A stretch of 64,000 bases of DNA from an uncultured Candidatus Saccharibacteria bacterium (GTDB lineage: Bacteria > Patescibacteriota > Saccharimonadia > CAILAD01 > JADZBC01), in contig CAZRJR010000001.1 in the NCBI GenBank assembly GCA_964600985.1, positions 147,270-211,269 of the forward strand. Reading direction: 5' to 3'. The notes under the pieces were generated by a model. That model worked only from the letters and a program-made list of their open reading frames with translations. It did no database searches and was not told where the DNA came from. This document shows positions 7,012-63,796 of the stretch, in pieces (within the stretch, counting starts at the first letter, position 1; each line of letters starts with the position of its first letter). A program made the position numbers and the translations under genes.

Positions 7012-7590
7012 ATGAAACTGTTTTTAATTAGACACGGAGAAACCACTGGAGATGTTGAAGATCGTTACGGCGGTAGTTATGACGACGATCTAACTACAAG
7101 GGGTCGAGAGCAGGCTGAGGATCTTGCAGATAAGTTAGCCGGTGAAAGTATTCAGAAGATTTTTTGCAGCCCTCTCGCTCGAGCTCGACAAACTGCAGAA
7201 TTTGTCCGCGCTAAGACTAACGCTGACTTAGTCGAGCTGCATGATGTTCGTGAACGGAACCACTACGGAATACTGAGTGGTATGACGAAGGCCGAAGCGA
7301 AGCGTGACTATCCTGAGCTGGTTGAGCTTGTTGCAGATAAGCTTAGTACTGTGGAGGGTGGCGAGTCGTACCACGATTTTGGCGCTAGAGTTGAGTCAGC
7401 CTTTGCTGAAATTAAGAATTCTAACCACGATACGGTGGCGGTACTAACTCACGGAGGAGTACTGCGTTATATCTTCCGAGACATATTAGGACTAGGTGAG
7501 ATAAAAGTAGGTGATTGTGGTTATGCGGAATTCAGGATTGTCGACGGTAGCCCGGAGTTGGTTAAGGCTCAAGGGATTAAGATACTCTAA
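7012..7590 (+). CDS. Histidine phosphatase family protein (phosphoglycerate mutase-like).
   Basis: MKLFLIRHGETTGDVEDRYGG...LTHGGVLRYI contains the RHGE catalytic motif. RBS ggagag lies 5 nt upstream of ATG 7012. The longer 6943 start would overlap the tRNA. Confidence 0.8.
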   Translation: MKLFLIRHGETTGDVEDRYGGSYDDDLTTRGREQAEDLADKLAGESIQKIFCSPLARARQTAEFVRAKTNADLVELHDVRERNHYGILSGMTKAEAKRDYPELVELVADKLSTVEGGESYHDFGARVESAFAEIKNSNHDTVAVLTHGGVLRYIFRDILGLGEIKVGDCGYAEFRIVDGSPELVKAQGIKIL

Positions 7591-55053: not shown

Positions 55054-57162
55054 ATGGCTCGCGAATACTCACTCGAAAATACTCGTAACATTGGTACCAT
55101 TGCTCATATTGATGCTGGTAAAACTACCGTAACTGAAGCAATTTTGTACCGCACCGGACGCGTACACAAGATCGGTGAAGTTCACGAGGGTGCTGCAACC
55201 ATGGACTGGATGGAGCAAGAGCAAGAGCGCGGTATAACCATTACTTCCGCCGCTACTACGTGCTTCTGGAATGGGAACCGAATTAACATCATTGATACCC
55301 CAGGCCATATCGACTTTACGGTAGAGGTAGAGCGTAGTTTGCGTGTACTCGATGGTGCGGTAGTGCTTTTTGACGGCAAGATGGGCGTAGAACCACAAAG
55401 TGAAACGGTATGGCGCCAGGCCGACAAGTACGGCGTGCCACGTATTTGCTTCATTAATAAGATCAACCAGACTGGGGGGGACTTTTATAAATCACTCGAG
55501 TCGATTCACGCGCGATTAACGAAGCGGGCGTATGCTATCCACCTGCCAATCGGTTTCGAACAGAGCATTAATGGCTTGGTTGATTTAGTCGAAATGAAGG
55601 CGTACGAGTACAAGAACTACGCCGACAAAGAACTTAAAGAAATCCCAATCCCTGATGATATGACCGAGAAGGTCGCACACTACCGCCAGCACCTTATCGA
55701 GGCTGCCGTAGAGTCCGACGACGCAATTATGGAGAAGTACCTAGAAGGTAACGAGCTTACGGTAGAAGAGGTCAAGACAGTTGTTCGTAAATCAGTTCTA
55801 ACTGGCCAGTTTGTAGTTGTATCTGGTGGTGACGGCCGTGGTGTAATTGTAGAAAAGCTGCTTGATGCCATGATTGACTACCTGCCAAATCCACTAGACA
55901 TTACCGCGCCAATTGCTAAGGATGTGAAGACCGGCGAAGACAAGGTGATTGAAGTCTCCGACGACGCACCATTTGCTGGGCTAGCGTTCAAGATCGCCAC
56001 CGATCCATTTGTAGGTAAGCTGGCTTTCTTCCGGGTATACTCAGGTGTGCTTAAGAGCGGGAGCTATATTCTAAATGCTTCTACGGGGGAGAAAGAGCGG
56101 GTAGGTCGTATCGTGCGTATGCATGCTAACAACCGGGAAGAAGTTAGTGAGGTATACGCCGGCGATATTGCGGCCGCAGTCGGGCTCAAAAACACCATTA
56201 CCGGTAACACAATTTGTGATCCAGCTCACCCCGTTATGCTAGAGTCAATTACCTTTGCTGAGCCAGTTATCTCGATTGCAATCGAGCCTAAGACCAAGGC
56301 CGATCAAGAGAAGATGGGTATTGCCCTCTCGCGCTTAGCCGAAGAAGATCCAACCTTCCGTGTGCACACCGACGAAGACAGTGGCCAGACTATTATTGAT
56401 GGCATGGGTGAATTACACCTTGAAGTGTTGGTGGACCGTATGAAGCGGGAATTTAAGGTAGAGGCAAATGTTGGTCGCCCTCAGGTAGCATACCGTGAAA
56501 CCATTCGCAAGAGTACCCAGGTAGAAGGTAAGTTTGTACGTCAATCTGGTGGGCGTGGTCAGTATGGTCATGTATGGATCGAGTTGAGTCCGCTGGTGCA
56601 CGAGGAAGGCGCCGAAGAGCGCAAAACCTTTGAGTTCGAGAACGCGATTGTGGGCGGTGCAGTGCCTCGTGAGTACATTAAACCAGTCGAAGAAGGAATA
56701 CGTGAAGCTCTCGCTAACGGTGTAGTGGCGGGCTATCCGGTAGTAGATGTACACGCCAAGCTCTACGACGGCTCATACCACGACGTAGACTCCTCAGAAA
56801 TGGCCTTTAAAATCGCCGGATCTATGGCGCTCCAGGCGGGTGTACGTCAGGCCGATCCAGTTATTCTGGAGCCTATGATGAAGGTTGAGATTACTACCCC
56901 AGAGGAGTTTATGGGTGATGTGATCGGCGACGTTAATGCTAAACGTGGTCGGGTGGAGAAAATGGAAGACCGCATGGGGGCCAAGGTGATCAATGCTTAT
57001 ATACCGCTCTCGGGCATGTTTGGTTACGCTACAACTCTGCGCTCTATGACTCAGGGCCGCGCCAGCTCGGCGATGGAATTTGACCACTACGCTGAAGTAC
57101 CGCGCAATGTGGCCGAAGAGCTCATTGGCAAGCGCCAAGCGGCAGTCGAAGAGGGTCGTTAG
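55054..57162 (+). CDS. fusA: Elongation factor G.
   Basis: GTP-binding [21 protein letters not shown]. 702 aa. Confidence 0.95.
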
Positions 57163-57237
57163 TTTTCTATTTCTCAAGCCACATAGTTAATTAAAGCCCT
57201 GGCCTCGGAGCCTTTAATATTGACAGGTGGTCTTGTC

Positions 57238-57266
57238 AAAGGTATTATATACTTGATCGGTAACGG
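57238..57266 (+). promoter_or_regulatory. Near-consensus sigma70 promoter (TTGACA-N17-TATTAT) downstream of fusA.
   Basis: ttgaca at 57238-57243, 17-nt spacer, tattat at 57261-57266. Confidence 0.6.
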
Positions 57267-57269
57267 TCG

Positions 57270-57792
57270 TACCAGCGCACTATAGTAGGTCGAGGCGTCT
57301 AGGTGTCGGGTGAGGGCCCCGACACCATAGTACGAACTAGGTTAGAGACCTGGTCCTCTTCCGAAACCTCCTATTGCTCCTTGCTCCGGCTAGGGTGGCT
57401 TGATCTGCACCAGGTTGAGACAAGTAAGAGGGGAGAGTAGTGCGTGCGGTACAGCTACAAGCTCTGGAGTTGGGGCGAAAAGTTTCGTGCACAAACTTCG
57501 GAGACTCGACGGTACCGTCGAGAGTTCGAATTGCGGCCGAGAATTACTTAGGCCGGGGAAGAACTTTGTAGTGTAGGTAGCGTTCTCATGCCTACGCACC
57601 TCCGCCACTCCTCCTACGCCTCCGGGAGGACTACAAGGGTAGTGGCGACAAGGTGGCGGCCAGGGCATAGGCCTTGCCCAAATGGCCACTCGGCGAAATT
57701 TTGATTGCTCCTGCCTGGAGGAGATCCCGCTCTCAAAACTCGCCAACACGGGCCCGACCTCCCAGAGGTCGGGCCCGTTCTGCCTCTTTATG
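57270..57792 (+). ncRNA. Candidate large structured ncRNA of about 520 nt, class unknown. It lies between fusA and tuf and is bounded by its own promoter and a terminal hairpin. The tuf promoter follows immediately.
   Basis: ORF-free on the + strand. The antisense 119-aa ORF is Pro/Ser-rich nonsense. Dense hairpins include gtgtcgggtgagggccccgacacc, ccgccact...agtggcg and ggccgag...ctcggcc (approx.). It ends with cgggcccgacctc ccag aggtcgggcccg followed by tctgcctcttt. Confidence 0.4.
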
Positions 57793-57802
57793 GTTAAAAC
57801 CC

Positions 57803-57831
57803 TTTACAATCACGGCTTTTTTACCTATAAT
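57803..57831 (+). promoter_or_regulatory. Promoter for tuf (TTTACA-N17-TATAAT).
   Basis: tttaca at 57803-57808, 17-nt spacer atcacggcttttttacc, tataat at 57826-57831. Confidence 0.6.
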
Positions 57832-57915
57832 CGAAAAGTCTAAGGCCTAGACATATTTTTATGTATCTAGGGCCGAAAGCTGAATAATTAATAAATCATC
57901 CAACAAGGAGACCAC

Positions 57916-59103
57916 ATGGCAGCAGAATCATTTGACCGTAGTAAACCGCACGTAAACGTCGGTACAATGGGGCATGTAGACCACGGTAAAACTACTCTTA
58001 CCGCCGCTATTACCCACGTATTGTCTAAGAAACTTCCGAGCGCAGTTAATAAGGCTATTAACTACGACGAAATCGACAAAGCTCCGGAAGAGCGCGAACG
58101 TGGTATCACCATCGCTACTTCTCACCAGGAATACGAGAGCGAAAAGCGACACTATGCGCACGTAGATATGCCCGGTCACGCTGACTATGTAAAGAACATG
58201 ATTACCGGTGCAGCTCAGATTGACGGTGCCGTACTCGTAGTATCGGCTGCTGATGGTCCTATGCCGCAGACTCGTGAGCACGTATTGCTTGCTCGTCAGG
58301 TAGGCGTGCCGTACATTCTTGTATATATGAACAAGATGGACATGGCCGATCCAGAGCTAGCCGAACTTGTAGAACTGGAAATCCGCGAGCTTCTTGCCAA
58401 GAATGGCTACGACGAAAACGCCCCAGTGGTTAAGGGTTCTGCCCTTAAGGCTCTCGAGGGTGACGCTGCTGCCGAAGACTCAATCATGGAGCTTGTAAAG
58501 GCCATGGACGAAAGCATACCAGAGCCAAAGCGCGAAATCGACAAGCCATTCCTGATGCCAGTCGAAGACGTATTCTCGATCAAGGGTCGTGGTACGGTTG
58601 CAACTGGTCGAATCGAGCAGGGTATCATCAAGGTTGGTGAAGAAATCGAGATCATCGGTTTGCACGATAGCAAAAAGACTACGGTAACTGGTGTAGAAAT
58701 GTTCAAGAAATTGCTCGACGAAGGTCGCGCAGGTGACAACGTAGGTGTATTGCTGCGTGGTGTGGAGCGAACCGACATTGAGCGTGGTCAAGTGCTTGCT
58801 AAGCCAGGTTCAATTACCCCACACACCGAGTTTGAATCTGAAGTGTACGTACTTAAGAAGGAAGAGGGCGGTCGACACACTCCATTCTTCAAGGGCTACA
58901 AGCCGCAGTTCTACATCCGTACTACCGATGTAACAGGTGAAGTTACGCTTCCAGACGGCGTAGAAATGGTTATGCCAGGCGATAACATCAAGATGAAGGT
59001 TAAGCTGATTGCTCCTATCGCCATGGAAGAAGGCCTTCGCTTCGCTATTCGCGAGGGTGGCCGCACTGTAGGTGCCGGTGTTGTAACGAAAATCAACAAG
59101 TAA
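57916..59103 (+). CDS. tuf: Elongation factor Tu.
   Basis: [22 protein letters not shown]. 395 aa. RBS aaggag. Confidence 0.96.
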
Positions 59104-59131: not shown

Positions 59132-59452
59132 ATGCCAGAACAAGCTACAAAACAACGCATCCGCATTCGCCTCAAGGCCTACGACAGCAAGATCATTGAT
59201 CAGTCAGCTAAGCAGATCCTGGACACCGCTATTCGAACTGGTGCCCAGGTAGCAGGGCCGGTGCCTTTGCCTACCGACAAAAACAAGCTTACGGTGCTCT
59301 CTAGTCCGCACGTGTTCAAGGACGCACGCGAGCAGTTTGAGATGCGTACGCACAAGCGACTAATCGACATTACCGAACCAACTCCTAAGACGATTGACTC
59401 GCTGATGAATCTCAACCTGCCAGCGGGTGTAGACATCGAAATCAAAATGTAG
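59132..59452 (+). CDS. rpsJ: 30S ribosomal protein S10.
   Basis: [11 protein letters not shown]...GPVPLPT...106 aa. Confidence 0.93.
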
Positions 59453-59465
59453 CATTGCCAAGGCA

Positions 59466-59497
59466 TACTAAAAACCCCTCTAAGTGAGGGGTTTTTA
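59466..59497 (+). terminator. Rho-independent terminator directly after rpsJ, where rplC would normally follow.
   Basis: aaaaacccctc taagtg aggggttttt agtatt. Confidence 0.75.
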
Positions 59498-59588
59498 GTA
59501 TTGGAGGGATAGATAGTATATATTGAAAATAATCACGTAATATGATAAAGTAATAGTGTCATCCACGAAGACGATGGGAGCAAGCAGT

Positions 59589-59867
59589 ATGACTGTAGTA
59601 ACGGTTTACTCACCTCGTCTTAAGGACGATATTGAGCTCGTGCCGAGGTGTGTTCGAGATGTCCTCGGGCCAATGGGGTTAAAGGTAAATCGTGTCTTTG
59701 AGCGAATTGATTCCAATATCCCTCAGGGCAGTCATCGCATAGTCGTTGAGCTGTTGGCTGAAGTTGACTCGCGTGTTAGCCAAGACGCCATTGGGGAGGC
59801 GCTCAAGCGGCTGTTCAATCACGTGCCTCCACGCCGTGAGGTTACGGTTGAATTCAAAGCTGCGTAG
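59589..59867 (+). CDS. Hypothetical protein (island gene A).
   Basis: About 92 aa from ATG 59589, which has a ggag 9 nt upstream. GTG 59556 is an alternative start. No recognisable domain. Confidence 0.4.
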   Translation: MTVVTVYSPRLKDDIELVPRCVRDVLGPMGLKVNRVFERIDSNIPQGSHRIVVELLAEVDSRVSQDAIGEALKRLFNHVPPRREVTVEFKAA

Positions 59868-60024
59868 GTGAGCGACATACGACGACAAGACGTGGCAAGA
59901 GCCCGCCCGGGTTTAACCTGGGCGGGCATTATGCATTTGAATGAATGTATACGTAAAATAGTGTGGCAATACTCAGCTAATCCTGTTACTATAATGGTCC
60001 GTCAATCTTTCTAGAGGAGTGTTC

Positions 60025-60384
60025 ATGCGCGTAGAATTCAAGTGTTTTCGGCGTAATGCTGCTGCCTCTGCGGCTGTAATGCGGCTGAAGCAGTATGCCA
60101 ACACTGCGATCATCGAGGTCCTCGAACTGGATCCCAACGACCATCCGGTCAACAGCTTGCCCTGCTCGTTCCCACCCTCGAACGAGGCTGGCATCGAGCT
60201 CAACATCAGTGCGGAAGAGCATGACTACCCAGGCGACGGCAACCCTGCCGAGCAGATCTACGCCTGGGTCAAGCATCGTGGTGGCTTCGGGACCGCGGGG
60301 GCAACTGTTACCATCCGTTGTCGCAAAAACGGACAGGTGAAGAAGTTCACGGCTGGTTCGACTAGGGTCCTCCAGTCGGTCTGA
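60025..60384 (+). CDS. Hypothetical protein (island gene B), visibly G+C-richer than the surrounding DNA.
   Basis: RBS gaggag lies 6 nt upstream of ATG 60025. 119 aa with no recognisable domain. Followed by two stem-loops (cccgcctgagtcac ttcg gtgactcaggcggg, and aaagcaccac ttaaa ctggtgcttt). Confidence 0.45.
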   Translation: MRVEFKCFRRNAAASAAVMRLKQYANTAIIEVLELDPNDHPVNSLPCSFPPSNEAGIELNISAEEHDYPGDGNPAEQIYAWVKHRGGFGTAGATVTIRCRKNGQVKKFTAGSTRVLQSV

Positions 60385-60585
60385 TCGGTTGACGGCACCC
60401 GCCTGAGTCACTTCGGTGACTCAGGCGGGAATTCCGAATTTATACACTTTAACTAAGCTAAAAGCACCACTTAAACTGGTGCTTTTAGCTTAGACAGAAC
60501 AAAAGTATTAAGTAGTTAATAGCTTGGTTCCGCCCACCTGGCCCCGTTGAAGGGGCCAGGTGGTACGTTATTGACTCGTGACGAA

Positions 60586-60906
60586 TCAGGCAGAAAGGGC
60601 AGCAACGGCCGTGTGGCCGCTCGGAGGTTCCCAGGGAATCAGCGCAGGGTAGATCTCCAGAGCCGGGATGAGTAGGTAGCGCTCCACGGTATCAGCAATA
60701 ACTGCTGCCTCTGTAGGGCTGATTGCTGGGGTCCCTCGACGCGGCCTGATCCGGATGACCTTTCGGTCGGGGAAGCCGTGTGCTTCAACTTTGTAGCGAT
60801 CACCTAGTCTCCGGGAGAGATCTGCGATCGTGGCATCACACGGAGCCGTACCCCGCAGGAGGGCACGCTTCCCACTCCACACCAGTCGGATGGCGCTTGC
60901 TTGCAT
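60586..60906 (-). CDS. Hypothetical protein (island gene C), G+C-rich.
   Basis: 106 aa. A hairpin (cacctggcccc gttgaa ggggccaggtg) lies just downstream of its stop. No recognisable domain. Confidence 0.4.
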   Translation of the reverse strand: MQASAIRLVWSGKRALLRGTAPCDATIADLSRRLGDRYKVEAHGFPDRKVIRIRPRRGTPAISPTEAAVIADTVERYLLIPALEIYPALIPWEPPSGHTAVAALSA

Positions 60907-61757
60907 GGCTTTCTCCTTTCGGGGTTGCTTGGGCCAGGCACACTACTCACAGTAAGTGTGGGCAGCGTGCCGCGTCCAAGACAATCCAGTCTCTGCCTGA
61001 TTTGTAAAAGAAACTAGAGCATCATGCGTGCCCTAATGAGTACAGATAATACTCTAAATATGTGGATAAGTCAATCTAATTCCTTACTAAACTATAGACA
61101 AGTAGTATGTAGTATGATACTATAGGTGTCTAAGTTTGGCGTTCACGCCAAATTGCACCTTATACACCTCGGACTTCGGTCCGTAGAATCAGCTCTCGAC
61201 GCGACCAGTGATGTTGTCAAGGCTTGATTCTACGGACTGATCCACGAACCCGGTTAGGGTACGCGGTAAGTCCAGCTCCGGGTCGATAGGAGGTGTAGTG
61301 GTGGGCCACTGAATGCCAGTGTAGCTTTCTCGCTCAGGCGACGATTGCTCCTCGCATGTCTAAAGCCATACCGCTCTACTTCCAAAAGATCCGGGCAAAT
61401 TCTCCCGCCATGCCACAAGCATGGTGGGCCTGGAGGGGTGGATTCCGCCCCCCTCCAAGGCTTGGCGCACTAAACTCGCGCGATTTAGGTCGCTGCAGTT
61501 GGTGTGTCGCCCGAGATGGCCATCCCGCCGGCCATCTCGTGGTTCGCGTCGTGCATTATATATTCACGGCCACAGTCGGAGACACGCCCGCGTCTCCGCC
61601 CCCGCAGCACGCGATCATCGCCCGCTTGCTGCCTCCGAGGGTGGGGCCGACCTTCACGGTTGGCCCCACCCTCCGCCCCTCTATATGAGGGGCTTTTGAT
61701 TTTGGTATTATTCCGACAGCTTAGACAGTCCAAAGCTTTTGTGCTTAAATAGAAGCT

Positions 61758-62021
61758 ATGAAGTCCAGCGCGAAAACAAAACGCTACTATGAGTCTGACT
61801 TTGCATTCTTGGTTAAGGCGGCGCTCTACCTTATACTTGGTCTCACCTGGTTATCTATTAGCTCACATCGCATAATTCCAATCGGCGTTATGCTTGGTTT
61901 TGCTTTTTCAAAGGTCGATGCCCTGCGGATTGATCGCAAAATAGAATATGCTCTCCTGGTGGTAGGTGCCCTGCTTGGGCTGGTATTTACTGGCATTGGC
62001 TTAACTTTAGCAATTGGTTAG
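61758..62021 (+). CDS. Hypothetical small membrane protein (two TM segments).
   Basis: 87 aa with two hydrophobic segments. Confidence 0.45.
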   Translation: MKSSAKTKRYYESDFAFLVKAALYLILGLTWLSISSHRIIPIGVMLGFAFSKVDALRIDRKIEYALLVVGALLGLVFTGIGLTLAIG

Positions 62022-62030
62022 GGCACTCGC

Positions 62031-62405
62031 GTGGTGAACATGGGGGGCCTAAACCCTACGCCGGCCTTTATAGTTAGCTTGCTGCCGATTCCATTCCTGC
62101 TCTACTATAATGTGATTGTAATGCGCTTGGTTTGGCAGGTGCGCATGCACGCGCGTAGCAAACATTTGCGTTACCCAGCGATTTATCAGCAGGGGAGGGC
62201 GCTTGGCTTGCTGTCGGCTTGTTTTGCGCTGGTGCCCGCAGTGGCTGAGTGGCGTGTATTTGTGCTTAACCCATACTGGGCGGTTTCGTACATAATTGGT
62301 GGAATTTTGGGTGTGTGGGCGCTTATTATGGTTCGCAAAGGTCTCGAGCAGGAGCTACGGCGCATTCCAGCAGCACGCTCAACTGGCTCTAAGCACAAAA
62401 AGTAG
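62031..62405 (+). CDS. Hypothetical membrane protein (three to four TM segments).
   Basis: 124 aa. Hydrophobic segments are separated by basic loops. Directly follows the preceding small membrane gene. Confidence 0.45.
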   Translation: MVNMGGLNPTPAFIVSLLPIPFLLYYNVIVMRLVWQVRMHARSKHLRYPAIYQQGRALGLLSACFALVPAVAEWRVFVLNPYWAVSYIIGGILGVWALIMVRKGLEQELRRIPAARSTGSKHKK

Positions 62406-62560
62406 TTGACACTCCTGTTATTTATCTGTTACACTAGCCACTGGTCAAAACAATTCCAAAGGCTTTACAGCTGGGAAGTGATTAGGTCCGGACTCCAACC
62501 TGGAAACCCATCTACTTGCCAGGATTTGTTTTTAGAACTAACAAATAATCAAGGATAACC

Positions 62561-63163
62561 GTGAAAGCTTTGCTCGCAAAAAAAATCGGCATGACCCAGA
62601 TCTTCGATGAATCGGGTGTTATGACTCCAGTCACCGTGCTGGAGGCTGGCCCATGCGTGATTACTCAGCTTAAATCAGTAGACCGCGATGGCTACAGTGG
62701 TGTGCAAATTGGTTTTGGTCAGGCTAAGCACCAGCCAAAGCCCCAGGCTGGCCACCTGGCTGCCGCCAAGGCTAATAGCCGGCACTTAGCCGAGGTGCGC
62801 ACTGATGAACCTGCCGATATGTCGGTTGGCGATGAAGTAAAAGCAGATGTTTTTGCCGTCGGTGATAGCGTGCAAGTAAGTGCTATTTCCAAGGGCAAAG
62901 GCTTTGCCGGCACCATTAAGCGTCATAACTTCAAGCGTGGACCAAAGACCCACGGTAGCCACAATTATCGCGCTCCGGGATCGATTGGTGCGGGCTACCC
63001 ACAGCACGTGTTTAAGGGCCAGAAAATGGCCGGTCAAATGGGCAACAAGCAGGTTACTGTAAAGAACCTTAAGATCATGGAAGTTGACGTTGCCAATAAC
63101 GTGCTCGTAGTGCGTGGCGCAGTGCCTGGCCCTAAGAAAAGTTTAGTAATGGTGAAGGGCTAG
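62561..63163 (+). CDS. rplC: 50S ribosomal protein L3.
   Basis: GTG start. ALLAKKIGMTQIFDE..., FKGQKMAGQMG. 200 aa. RBS aagga. Confidence 0.93.
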   Translation: MKALLAKKIGMTQIFDESGVMTPVTVLEAGPCVITQLKSVDRDGYSGVQIGFGQAKHQPKPQAGHLAAAKANSRHLAEVRTDEPADMSVGDEVKADVFAVGDSVQVSAISKGKGFAGTIKRHNFKRGPKTHGSHNYRAPGSIGAGYPQHVFKGQKMAGQMGNKQVTVKNLKIMEVDVANNVLVVRGAVPGPKKSLVMVKG

Positions 63164-63166
63164 GCT

Positions 63167-63796
63167 ATGAAGGTACCAACTTATACTAAAACTGGCACCA
63201 AGGCTACTACCGAAGTTGCACTCGACAAGTCTGTGTTTGAATTAACGCTCAATCCAGAATTGCTCAGCCTGGCCTATCGTCGGGCTTTGGCTAACCGCCG
63301 TACTAACAATGCCCAGACCCTTACTCGTGGTTTGGTGGCTGGTGGCGGCAAGAAGCCCTGGCGCCAAAAGGGCACCGGCCGCGCGCGTGTTGGTTCGAGT
63401 CGTACGCCTCTCTGGCGTACCGGGGGTATTGTGTTTGGTCCAACTGGCAACGAAAACTACAGTATTGACATGACGCGCAAGATGATTCGTGGCTCTATAG
63501 CTCAGTCGCTCAGCGCCCAAGCTAAGAATGTACGTGTAATTGAGGCATTTGCTCCAGTCGAAGCCAAAACCCGCGCTGCAGTTGACCTGCTGGCCAAGCT
63601 CGGCGTAGAGGGGCGTGTACTTATTGTGGTGGAAAAGATGAACGACACGATCGTTCGTGCAGTTGCAAACTTGCCGCAAGTGCAGGCTGTAACCGTACCA
63701 CGAGTAACCGCCTTTGATGTACTAAATGCCGACGCAATTATTATCGAAAAACCAGCCCTTGACAGCCTTAAAACCTGGCTAGGAGGGACTAAGTAA
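63167..63796 (+). CDS. rplD: 50S ribosomal protein L4.
   Basis: 209 aa. [16 protein letters not shown] motif. Confidence 0.93.

Follow-up and report, generated by a model that had tools for sequence, protein, structure and literature searches.

A lineage-wide split between rpsJ and rplC in Saccharibacteria and a candidate large structured RNA in the resulting gap

We analyzed a stretch of 64,000 nucleotides (nt) from an uncultured Candidatus Saccharibacteria bacterium (contig CAZRJR010000001.1; hereafter the window), in which the S10 operon is interrupted between rpsJ and rplC. The genes fusA (positions 55054–57162), tuf (57916–59103) and rpsJ (59132–59452) are separated from rplC (62561–63163, GTG start) and rplD (63167–63796) by a gap of 3108 bp (59453–62560). 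The gap contains five small open reading frames (ORFs), here called orfA to orfE, and, between orfC and orfD, a candidate structured non-coding RNA of ~570 nt (61128–61700, + strand). An initial annotation had reported the interruption, five small ORFs without recognizable domains, the last two of them membrane proteins, a strong terminator behind rpsJ and the lack of an integrase or transposase, and on these points our results agree with it. All five ORFs are present where it had placed them and have no significant match in Pfam, PHROG, PADLOC or NCBIfam, searches that returned no integrase or transposase among them either. orfD and orfE contain two and three hydrophobic segments of 19 residues, respectively, and orfA, orfB and orfC none. 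The rpsJ terminator is a perfect 16-bp hairpin (59465–59501) with an A-run and a T-run on either side, the form of a bidirectional terminator, and an equivalent hairpin is found 3' of rpsJ in a related locus (L083). No direct repeats flanking the gap were found.

We retrieved 80 loci, one genome per GTDB species, and took the distance between rpsJ and rplC where both genes were present. The closest RpsJ sequences in this set come from Saccharibacteria metagenome-assembled genomes (identity up to 84%). The spacing is 701–4788 bp in ten of ten measurable Saccharibacteria-like loci versus 16–85 bp (median 27) in 69 non-Saccharibacteria loci (Actinomycetota, Bacillota and others); compared with other bacteria the interrupted junction is thus highly unusual, as had been suspected from the window. 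Because of this difference in spacing, we regard the uncoupling of rpsJ from rplC as a lineage-wide trait and not as an event in this genome. The split is also present in all seven closer relatives whose contigs span both genes. The content of the junction varies by species and includes a CTP synthase (pyrG) and an LPG-synthase-like gene in L007, a NUDIX gene in L003 and a HAD hydrolase gene in L010. Two records in the set are labeled “Bacillota bacterium” (L003, DATIJU010000023.1) and “bacterium” (L011, RFTN01000004.1), and the similarity groups of fusA, tuf, rpsJ and rplC place both with Saccharibacteria, a grouping that orfD also supports for L003; the labels are probably wrong or unresolved. 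In the literature on the S10 operon in Saccharibacteria we found no description of the rpsJ–rplC split.

Relatives for a closer comparison were chosen by their RplC homologues (93–74% identity), and their contigs were fetched. Those with RplC at least 83% identical (L083, L085, L088 and L090–L093; the contig of L087 covers no more than the 3' part of orfD, followed by orfE and rplC) share the layout of the window wherever the contig extends. Behind rpsJ and its terminator there are at most two small ORFs, then a ~75-nt block that is conserved and an opposite-strand ORF of ~90–130 amino acids; next come a stretch of 700–940 bp in which no genes are called, orfD, orfE and finally rplC with a conserved promoter and leader. 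In L094, L095 and L097, whose RplC is 74–78% identical, orfE is retained throughout and orfD in L094 and L095, and a DEAD-box RNA helicase takes the place that orfC and the RNA occupy in the clade of the window. The helicase gene lies on the reverse strand between rpsJ and orfD/orfE (L094 5766–6965, L095 5745–6944, L097 3950–5149).

This comparison bears on the origin of the gap, which the initial annotation had interpreted as recently acquired horizontal cargo, conceivably from a high-GC host or partner organism. The base composition does set the region apart. The mean G+C content of the window is 0.502 (sd 0.026, 500-bp windows), and its highest 500-bp value, 0.614, falls inside the gap (within 60047–61928). 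The two segments singled out as G+C-rich, 60030–60960 (0.568) and 61350–61700 (0.627), exceed all same-length windows outside the gap, orfB and orfC lack homologues, and orfB has a third-position G+C content (GC3) of 0.70 and is missing from the relatives. A recent arrival, possibly from an actinobacterial host, could account for these features, but it is at odds with the split in every Saccharibacteria locus of measurable spacing and with the presence of the RNA, the orfC family, orfD and orfE at the same positions and with the same composition in the relatives with RplC at least 83% identical, contigs permitting. A search of 5.8 billion proteins returned nothing homologous to orfB or orfC, from Actinomycetota or from any other source beyond the species; no mobility gene was found, and phage and plasmid collections gave no match for the gap DNA (blastn) or for orfB (tblastn). 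Measured as a genomic island, the region differs in composition, but apart from orfB it is present in close relatives, and mobility genes, flanking repeats and homologues in a donor lineage are lacking.

The composition itself has another source. In every close relative G+C is likewise elevated in the RNA (0.55–0.60) and in the orfC family (0.56–0.62) compared with the locus (0.48–0.53), which makes the signal a conserved property of these two elements. The window RNA has a G+C content of 0.59, inside the range of three tRNAs (0.54–0.61), and the peak in G+C, like most of the hairpin density, comes from the G-C-rich stems of a structured RNA. The switch to AT-rich DNA at 61000–61130 is as sharp as had been described (G+C 0.321), but as a sign of horizontal cargo it fails, since it coincides with a conserved divergent promoter region. 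Recent acquisition is thus largely refuted for the region as a whole and in our estimate most improbable; we are highly confident that the gap is ancestral and lineage-specific.

Sliding 200-nt windows confirm that the gap is dense in hairpins. Fold z-scores reach −7.7 to −10.8 at 60300–60600 and −8 to −12 at 61100–61800, against a background mean of −0.35 (sd 1.45), and are near 0 in the coding bodies of orfB and orfC. The second of these regions contains the candidate RNA. It is preceded by a conserved, AT-rich divergent promoter region (60907–61127), which would serve orfC on the − strand and the RNA on the + strand. Its predicted promoter (61095–61123, TAGACA-17-TACTAT with an upstream TG) and its predicted intrinsic terminator (61675–61693, followed by a T-run) lie on the same strand, and both are conserved in the alignment of the relatives. 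In the 5' domain an invariant AAAUUGCACCUUAUA motif lies between two hairpins, P1 and P2, the latter of ~22 bp; many of the hairpins that form the variable array in the center have UUCG-type loops; and a G+C-rich hairpin at 61637–61673 directly precedes the terminator. The window RNA (573 nt) folds with a z-score of −13.2 for the + strand, compared with −8.9 for the − strand.

Homologous regions in seven relatives could be delimited by an invariant 15-nt motif (AAATTGCACCTTATA) and by the conserved box upstream of orfD. They yield six distinct sequences of 544–676 nt (G+C 0.55–0.60), whose + strand has z-scores of −13 to −16, against −7 to −9.5 for the − strand. The 5' domain has 32 consensus pairs, and 91% of the cells in the alignment are paired, compared with 28–45% when the partners are slid. 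Double changes occur in 10 of the 32 pairs, and the covariation score is reached by none of 500 shuffles, a control that ignores phylogeny. In the 3' domain, 12 of 23 pairs show double changes and again none of 500 shuffles, likewise ignoring phylogeny, reaches the score; here too the pairing collapses when the partners are slid. In the three species that can best be aligned over the full length, 159 pairs are predicted, 48 of them compensatory. Three pairs of the 5' domain are G-U in all or most sequences; since these would be C-A mismatches on the opposite strand, they favor an RNA made from the + strand. Conservation, structure and covariation of the element are what this comparison shows.

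The stretch does not look like a protein-coding gene. It has no frame-consistent conserved ORF, gene callers place nothing in it in seven relatives, and translated matches occur in all frames and on both strands, as expected of G+C-rich palindromic DNA. Nor does it resemble a described RNA. At the gathering threshold Rfam detects only tRNAs in the window, and at E ≤ 5 only terminator-like matches (the best with 25.7 bits against a threshold of 49.5); no family matches five relatives even at permissive thresholds; and ARAGORN finds no transfer-messenger RNA (tmRNA) in the window. Among the families that the element does not match anywhere near threshold are OLE, ROOL, GOLLD, RNase P, tmRNA, 6S, SRP, group I/II introns and riboswitches. 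A covariance model of the 5' domain matches only eight loci of this clade and nothing in the rest of the window, in eleven GTDB Saccharibacteria loci or in L094, L095 and L097. A pattern scan with the invariant motif returned no further copies in metagenome and viral collections, only one unrelated metagenome contig and no viral contig. We found no such RNA described in the literature on structured or non-coding RNAs of Saccharibacteria or Patescibacteria. RNase P-like strings noticed by eye (GGUAAGUCC in the window, GGAAGAGCGCAC in L091) were rejected as they are not conserved across homologues, and a search for a target of the invariant 15-nt motif gave no complementary site in the window beyond chance. 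In L090 (GCA_964436255.1) the region of the 3' hairpin (~7090–7150) contains a run of Ns, poly-G/poly-C and unrelated sequence, across which a 181-residue ORF has been called; this has the appearance of an error made in assembly or scaffolding where a hairpin is very stable.

The stretch might instead act as DNA or have no function, as REP- or MITE-like palindromes (repetitive extragenic palindromes or miniature inverted-repeat transposable elements), as an insulator of stacked terminators or as what is left of a decayed gene, for instance the DEAD-box helicase. Stems close to perfect are numerous, the − strand folds well too (z −7 to −9.5), and L094, L095 and L097 carry the helicase gene in the equivalent position. 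Against this, the + strand is consistently 5–8 standard deviations more stable than the − strand, some pairs are invariably G-U, promoter and terminator are conserved on one strand and the tetraloops are of UUCG type. Repeats of the RNA units are absent from the element and from elsewhere in the window, no residual helicase similarity is detectable in the window, and pairing is maintained by compensatory changes while the sequence diverges. We therefore consider a role as DNA, or none, very unlikely. A series of hairpins processed by RNase III is also less likely than a stand-alone RNA.

The position of the element raises the possibility that it acts in cis, as a very long 5' leader or attenuator of orfD–orfE, and possibly of rplC, that works by conditional read-through of its terminator. 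It lies directly 5' of orfD on the same strand in eight of eight loci, and it ends, 58 nt before the orfD ATG, in an intrinsic terminator. Between terminator and ATG, however, there is a conserved promoter-like TAGACA-17-TGcTTAAAT, which argues that the RNA is its own transcription unit and that orfD is expressed separately. In addition, L094, L095, L097 and five GTDB species have orfD and/or orfE but lack the element, rplC has a conserved promoter and leader of its own, and no anti-terminator pairing is conserved across the family; the long-range pairing between motif and terminator that we considered is absent from the other sub-clade (L088, L091, L093). A leader function is on balance unlikely, and we judge it quite probable that 61128–61700 encodes a stand-alone structured RNA.

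Stem-loop arrays of the TIGR type have been reported in Patescibacteria and their phages (PMC12045711), and the comparison suggests itself for palindromic stem-loops that vary and stand in tandem in a genome of the candidate phyla radiation. By definition a TIGR-Tas system encodes a Tas protein with a Nop domain next to the array, and the array repeats a unit with box C/D motifs and with two spacers per loop (PMC12045711). In the window the neighboring proteins (87–124 amino acids) have no Pfam match and none contains a Nop domain, the element has no repeated unit or tandem periodicity, and by inspection of the fold most apical loops measure 4–8 nt, too short for two spacers of 8–12 nt plus box C/D. 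As these defining features fail, we reject a guide-RNA array of this type, the probability of which is negligible.

By its anatomy the closest analogy is the OLE RNA of Bacillota together with oapA. OLE is an RNA of ~600 nt whose usual immediate downstream neighbor encodes OapA, a membrane protein that binds it (PMC12265935), and it has been linked to the ribosomal protein bS21 (PMC12054373). The window RNA resembles it in size, heavy pairing, transcription signals of its own and a gene for a small multi-pass membrane protein directly downstream on the same strand. In contrast to OLE, it does not match the OLE covariance model, it is little conserved in sequence outside the 5' domain and it is confined to one narrow Saccharibacteria clade; orfD and orfE have no similarity to OapA or to CNNM-type domains. 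The OapA homologue downstream and the strict co-occurrence that mark an OLE-type ribonucleoprotein (RNP) are thus missing, and because orfD and/or orfE occur without the RNA in sister clades, the association of the RNA with this pair is positional only. ROOL and GOLLD are large ornate bacterial RNAs of unknown function (PMC12286853). The window RNA shares with them a length of >500 nt, a strong structure and the lack of coding potential, but it does not match their covariance models, is not associated with phages or tRNA genes and consists for the most part of hairpins lined up one after another, in place of a multi-junction fold. Our best guess is that it is a trans-acting structural or scaffold RNA that would work as an RNP.

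Upstream of the RNA lie the three ORFs without hydrophobic segments. orfA (59589–59867, +; 92 amino acids) is fast-evolving and is followed by a G+C-rich hairpin (59901–59927, +), for which only a weak, sub-threshold Rfam match was obtained. It shows weak likeness to a protein family encoded after rpsJ in L083, L090 and L091 (E 0.03–0.19, terminal strands matching), of which it is a probable distant member; within that family the ratio of non-synonymous to synonymous substitution rates (dN/dS) is 0.33. Single-sequence AlphaFold2 predicts a β-α-β-β-α-β ferredoxin-like fold with a predicted local distance difference test score (pLDDT) of 77.5. A profile comparison with hhalign was negative for orfA as a diverged paralogue of S10 (uS10). 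orfB (60025–60384, +; 119 amino acids, GAGGAG Shine-Dalgarno) is a species-specific ORFan with a self match only in the 5.8 billion proteins, is missing from all relatives, and stands out by its GC3 against values of 0.51–0.57 in the four longest genes checked. Two terminator hairpins follow (60398–60493), a perfect 14-bp stem at 60398–60429 and a 20-bp bidirectional terminator at 60453–60493.

orfC (60586–60906, −; 106 amino acids) finds only itself in a single-sequence search of the same proteins, and it is nonetheless a member of a hypervariable family: the reverse-strand ORFs at its position in close relatives share its promoter, 5' untranslated region (UTR), GAAAGGAGG Shine-Dalgarno and C-terminal [FW]E[PD]P motif. 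The predicted promoter (61074–61046, −) is TTGACT-17-TATTAT, followed by the 5'UTR and Shine-Dalgarno. Within the family, L088 and L093 match at E = 1e-41 with a dN/dS of 0.30. orfC is likewise predicted to adopt a β-α-β-β-α-β ferredoxin-like fold (single-sequence AlphaFold2, pLDDT 63), and Foldseek searches with orfA and orfC returned generic ferredoxin-like matches only (ACT, S6, S10-like and designed proteins; E ≥ 6e-3 for orfC). A match of orfC to a HUH/REP-associated transposase (4er8, E = 7e-3) was discarded, as the protein has no HUH motif, is ~40 amino acids too short and shares only a generic fold. dN/dS is below 1 in all small-ORF families. By these sequence comparisons orfA and orfC appear to be native members of fast-evolving families rather than foreign genes.

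The ~75-nt block conserved among relatives lies 3' of orfC (60494–60565, −) and consists of a 12-bp G+C hairpin (60534–60563) with a GNUGAA loop plus ~45 nt. It is 79–88% identical in L083 (1727–1798), L088 (1427–1496), L091 (6046–6121) and L093, its stem shows compensatory changes, the adjoining ORFs are unalignable, and it is retained whichever coding allele occupies the orfC slot. The block is probably a 3'UTR element of the mRNA of this family and might have a role in stability, as a recombination anchor or as an antisense promoter. It starts with AGCTTAGACAG, and the same string precedes orfD at 61718–61728.

A pair of near-identical loci captures the exchange of this gene. L091 (6123–6413) and L092 (335–644) carry unalignable alleles of the orfC family between flanks that are 97–98% identical on both sides; the similarity breaks off precisely at the start codon on one side and at the conserved 3'UTR hairpin on the other, and the L092 allele is of the type found in L088 and L093. 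Saccharibacteria are naturally competent and integrate linear DNA via homologous flanks of ~1 kb (PMC10633639), which would provide a mechanism for the swap that requires no integrase. The arrangement resembles idiomorph or cassette loci of competent bacteria, for example of the pherotype/immunity type, in having near-identical flanks around an unalignable coding sequence in a competent host lineage. It differs from them in that the proteins of the orfC slot are soluble, ~90–130 amino acids long and predicted to be ferredoxin-like, with no known partner.

Downstream of the RNA, orfD (61758–62021, +; 87 amino acids) encodes a conserved small membrane protein. Its putative promoter (61722–61750, +; TAGACA, 17 nt, TGC-TTAAAT) is conserved in the alignment and was not flagged by the promoter scan. 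The TGcTTAAAT box ends 7 nt 5' of the ATG and no Shine-Dalgarno is seen (61745–61760), suggesting that the orfD mRNA may be leaderless. orfD is 80–85% identical in close relatives and 30–44% identical at the same junction in five GTDB species; 38 cluster representatives were found among 1.84 billion proteins (E ≤ 1e-3), it is restricted to Saccharibacteria-like genomes, and viral contigs contain no relative of it. orfE (62031–62405, +; 121–124 amino acids, with an ATG at 62040) encodes a small membrane protein that is 59–73% identical in close relatives and 40% identical in L097. Both genes are under purifying selection, with a dN/dS of 0.06 for orfD and 0.28 for orfE.

rplC appears to be expressed from its own near-consensus promoter (62406–62435, +; TTGACA-18-TACACT with TG). 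The leader of ~120 nt (62442–62560, +) contains a long interrupted hairpin (62471–62523) followed by AUUUGUUUUU, whose U-run sits ~30 nt 5' of the rplC start. Its conservation extends to nine relatives, among them L094 and L095, which are distant. It has 24 predicted pairs, 6 of them with compensatory changes, and belongs to no Rfam family. In the S10 operon leader of E. coli, L4 mediates transcription attenuation. The rplC leader shares with it a long hairpin and a U-run shortly 5' of the first gene of the operon, but it precedes rplC and not rpsJ and has no sequence or Rfam similarity to it. By this likeness, drawn from sequence, it looks like an attenuator of the rplC–rplD... operon and is a candidate autoregulatory leader of ribosomal proteins.

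A second non-coding stretch is found nearby in the str-S10 region. The spacer between fusA and tuf (57163–57915) measures 753 bp, with G+C up to 0.60, no credible ORF and no Rfam match. It contains a near-consensus promoter (TTGACA-17-TATTAT, 57220–57248) and a perfect 14-bp hairpin (57748–57778) just upstream of the conserved tuf promoter, and it folds with a z-score of −5.4 for the + strand, compared with −4.1 for the − strand. L090 and L091 have a spacer of the same size with the same promoter (z −4.8), and L094, L095 and L097 have small ORFs instead. The spacer is possibly a second unannotated RNA gene.

Taken together, our results suggest that rpsJ was uncoupled from rplC long ago in Saccharibacteria (TM7, Patescibacteria) and that the space has been filled by lineage-specific genes. 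In this species the gap would hold several separate transcription units. The first would comprise orfA and the species-specific orfB, each of which ends in a hairpin. The second would be orfC on the opposite strand, in which the promoter, 5'UTR, Shine-Dalgarno and 3'UTR hairpin are conserved and the hypervariable coding sequence is exchanged whole; natural transformation with homologous recombination via the conserved flanks is the likely route. The ~570-nt structured RNA, divergent from orfC on the + strand and ending at its intrinsic terminator, would form the third unit, the conserved membrane-protein pair orfD–orfE the fourth, and the rplC–rplD... operon, with its own promoter and attenuator-like leader, the fifth. 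We consider this explanation as a whole, with an ancestral split, several transcription units and a structured RNA, to be probable.

Several points weigh against it. The RNA family consists of six distinct sequences from one narrow clade, its center can be aligned only within sub-clades, and the shuffle control for covariation takes no account of phylogeny. Many of the stems are long and near-perfect, which is likelier for terminators, palindromic elements or RNase III substrates than for ornate RNAs. We infer from sequence signals that the RNA and the small ORFs are transcribed, and the promoter assignments in the gap are predictions of the same kind. The constantly high G+C of the orfC family is not accounted for, and orfB could have been gained recently, the sole such candidate in the gap, or be a young gene.

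Nearly all bacteria have the rpsJ–rplC junction, but in the Saccharibacteria that we examined it is always broken and has become a site of lineage-specific gene gain and loss, which matters for annotation, synteny-based binning and phylogenomics that assume a contiguous S10 block. The locus also counsels caution, in that a local G+C peak and ORFans at a conserved junction resemble horizontal transfer, and here they would reflect an RNA gene and fast-evolving native genes. The exact swap of the orfC slot between near-identical strains hints at diversifying or balancing selection on a small protein. Few structured bacterial RNAs exceed 500 nt, and nearly all that do (OLE, ROOL, GOLLD) are mechanistic puzzles. 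That 61128–61700 founds a new class of large RNA (~550–680 nt) in this Saccharibacteria clade, forming an RNP with the adjacent small proteins, is a rather doubtful proposition at present; its partners would be the hypervariable proteins of predicted ferredoxin-like fold and/or orfD–orfE, in a slot used for a DEAD-box helicase in sister clades, and the RNA would then contribute to ribosome metabolism, to RNA metabolism or to the way in which the epibiont interacts with its host. Because epibionts with reduced genomes pay for each non-coding kilobase that they retain, the 570-nt RNA is a concrete candidate for experiments, and since Saccharibacteria can now be transformed, a conserved, extremely stable and apparently promoter-driven RNA within a ribosomal-protein superoperon is open to them.

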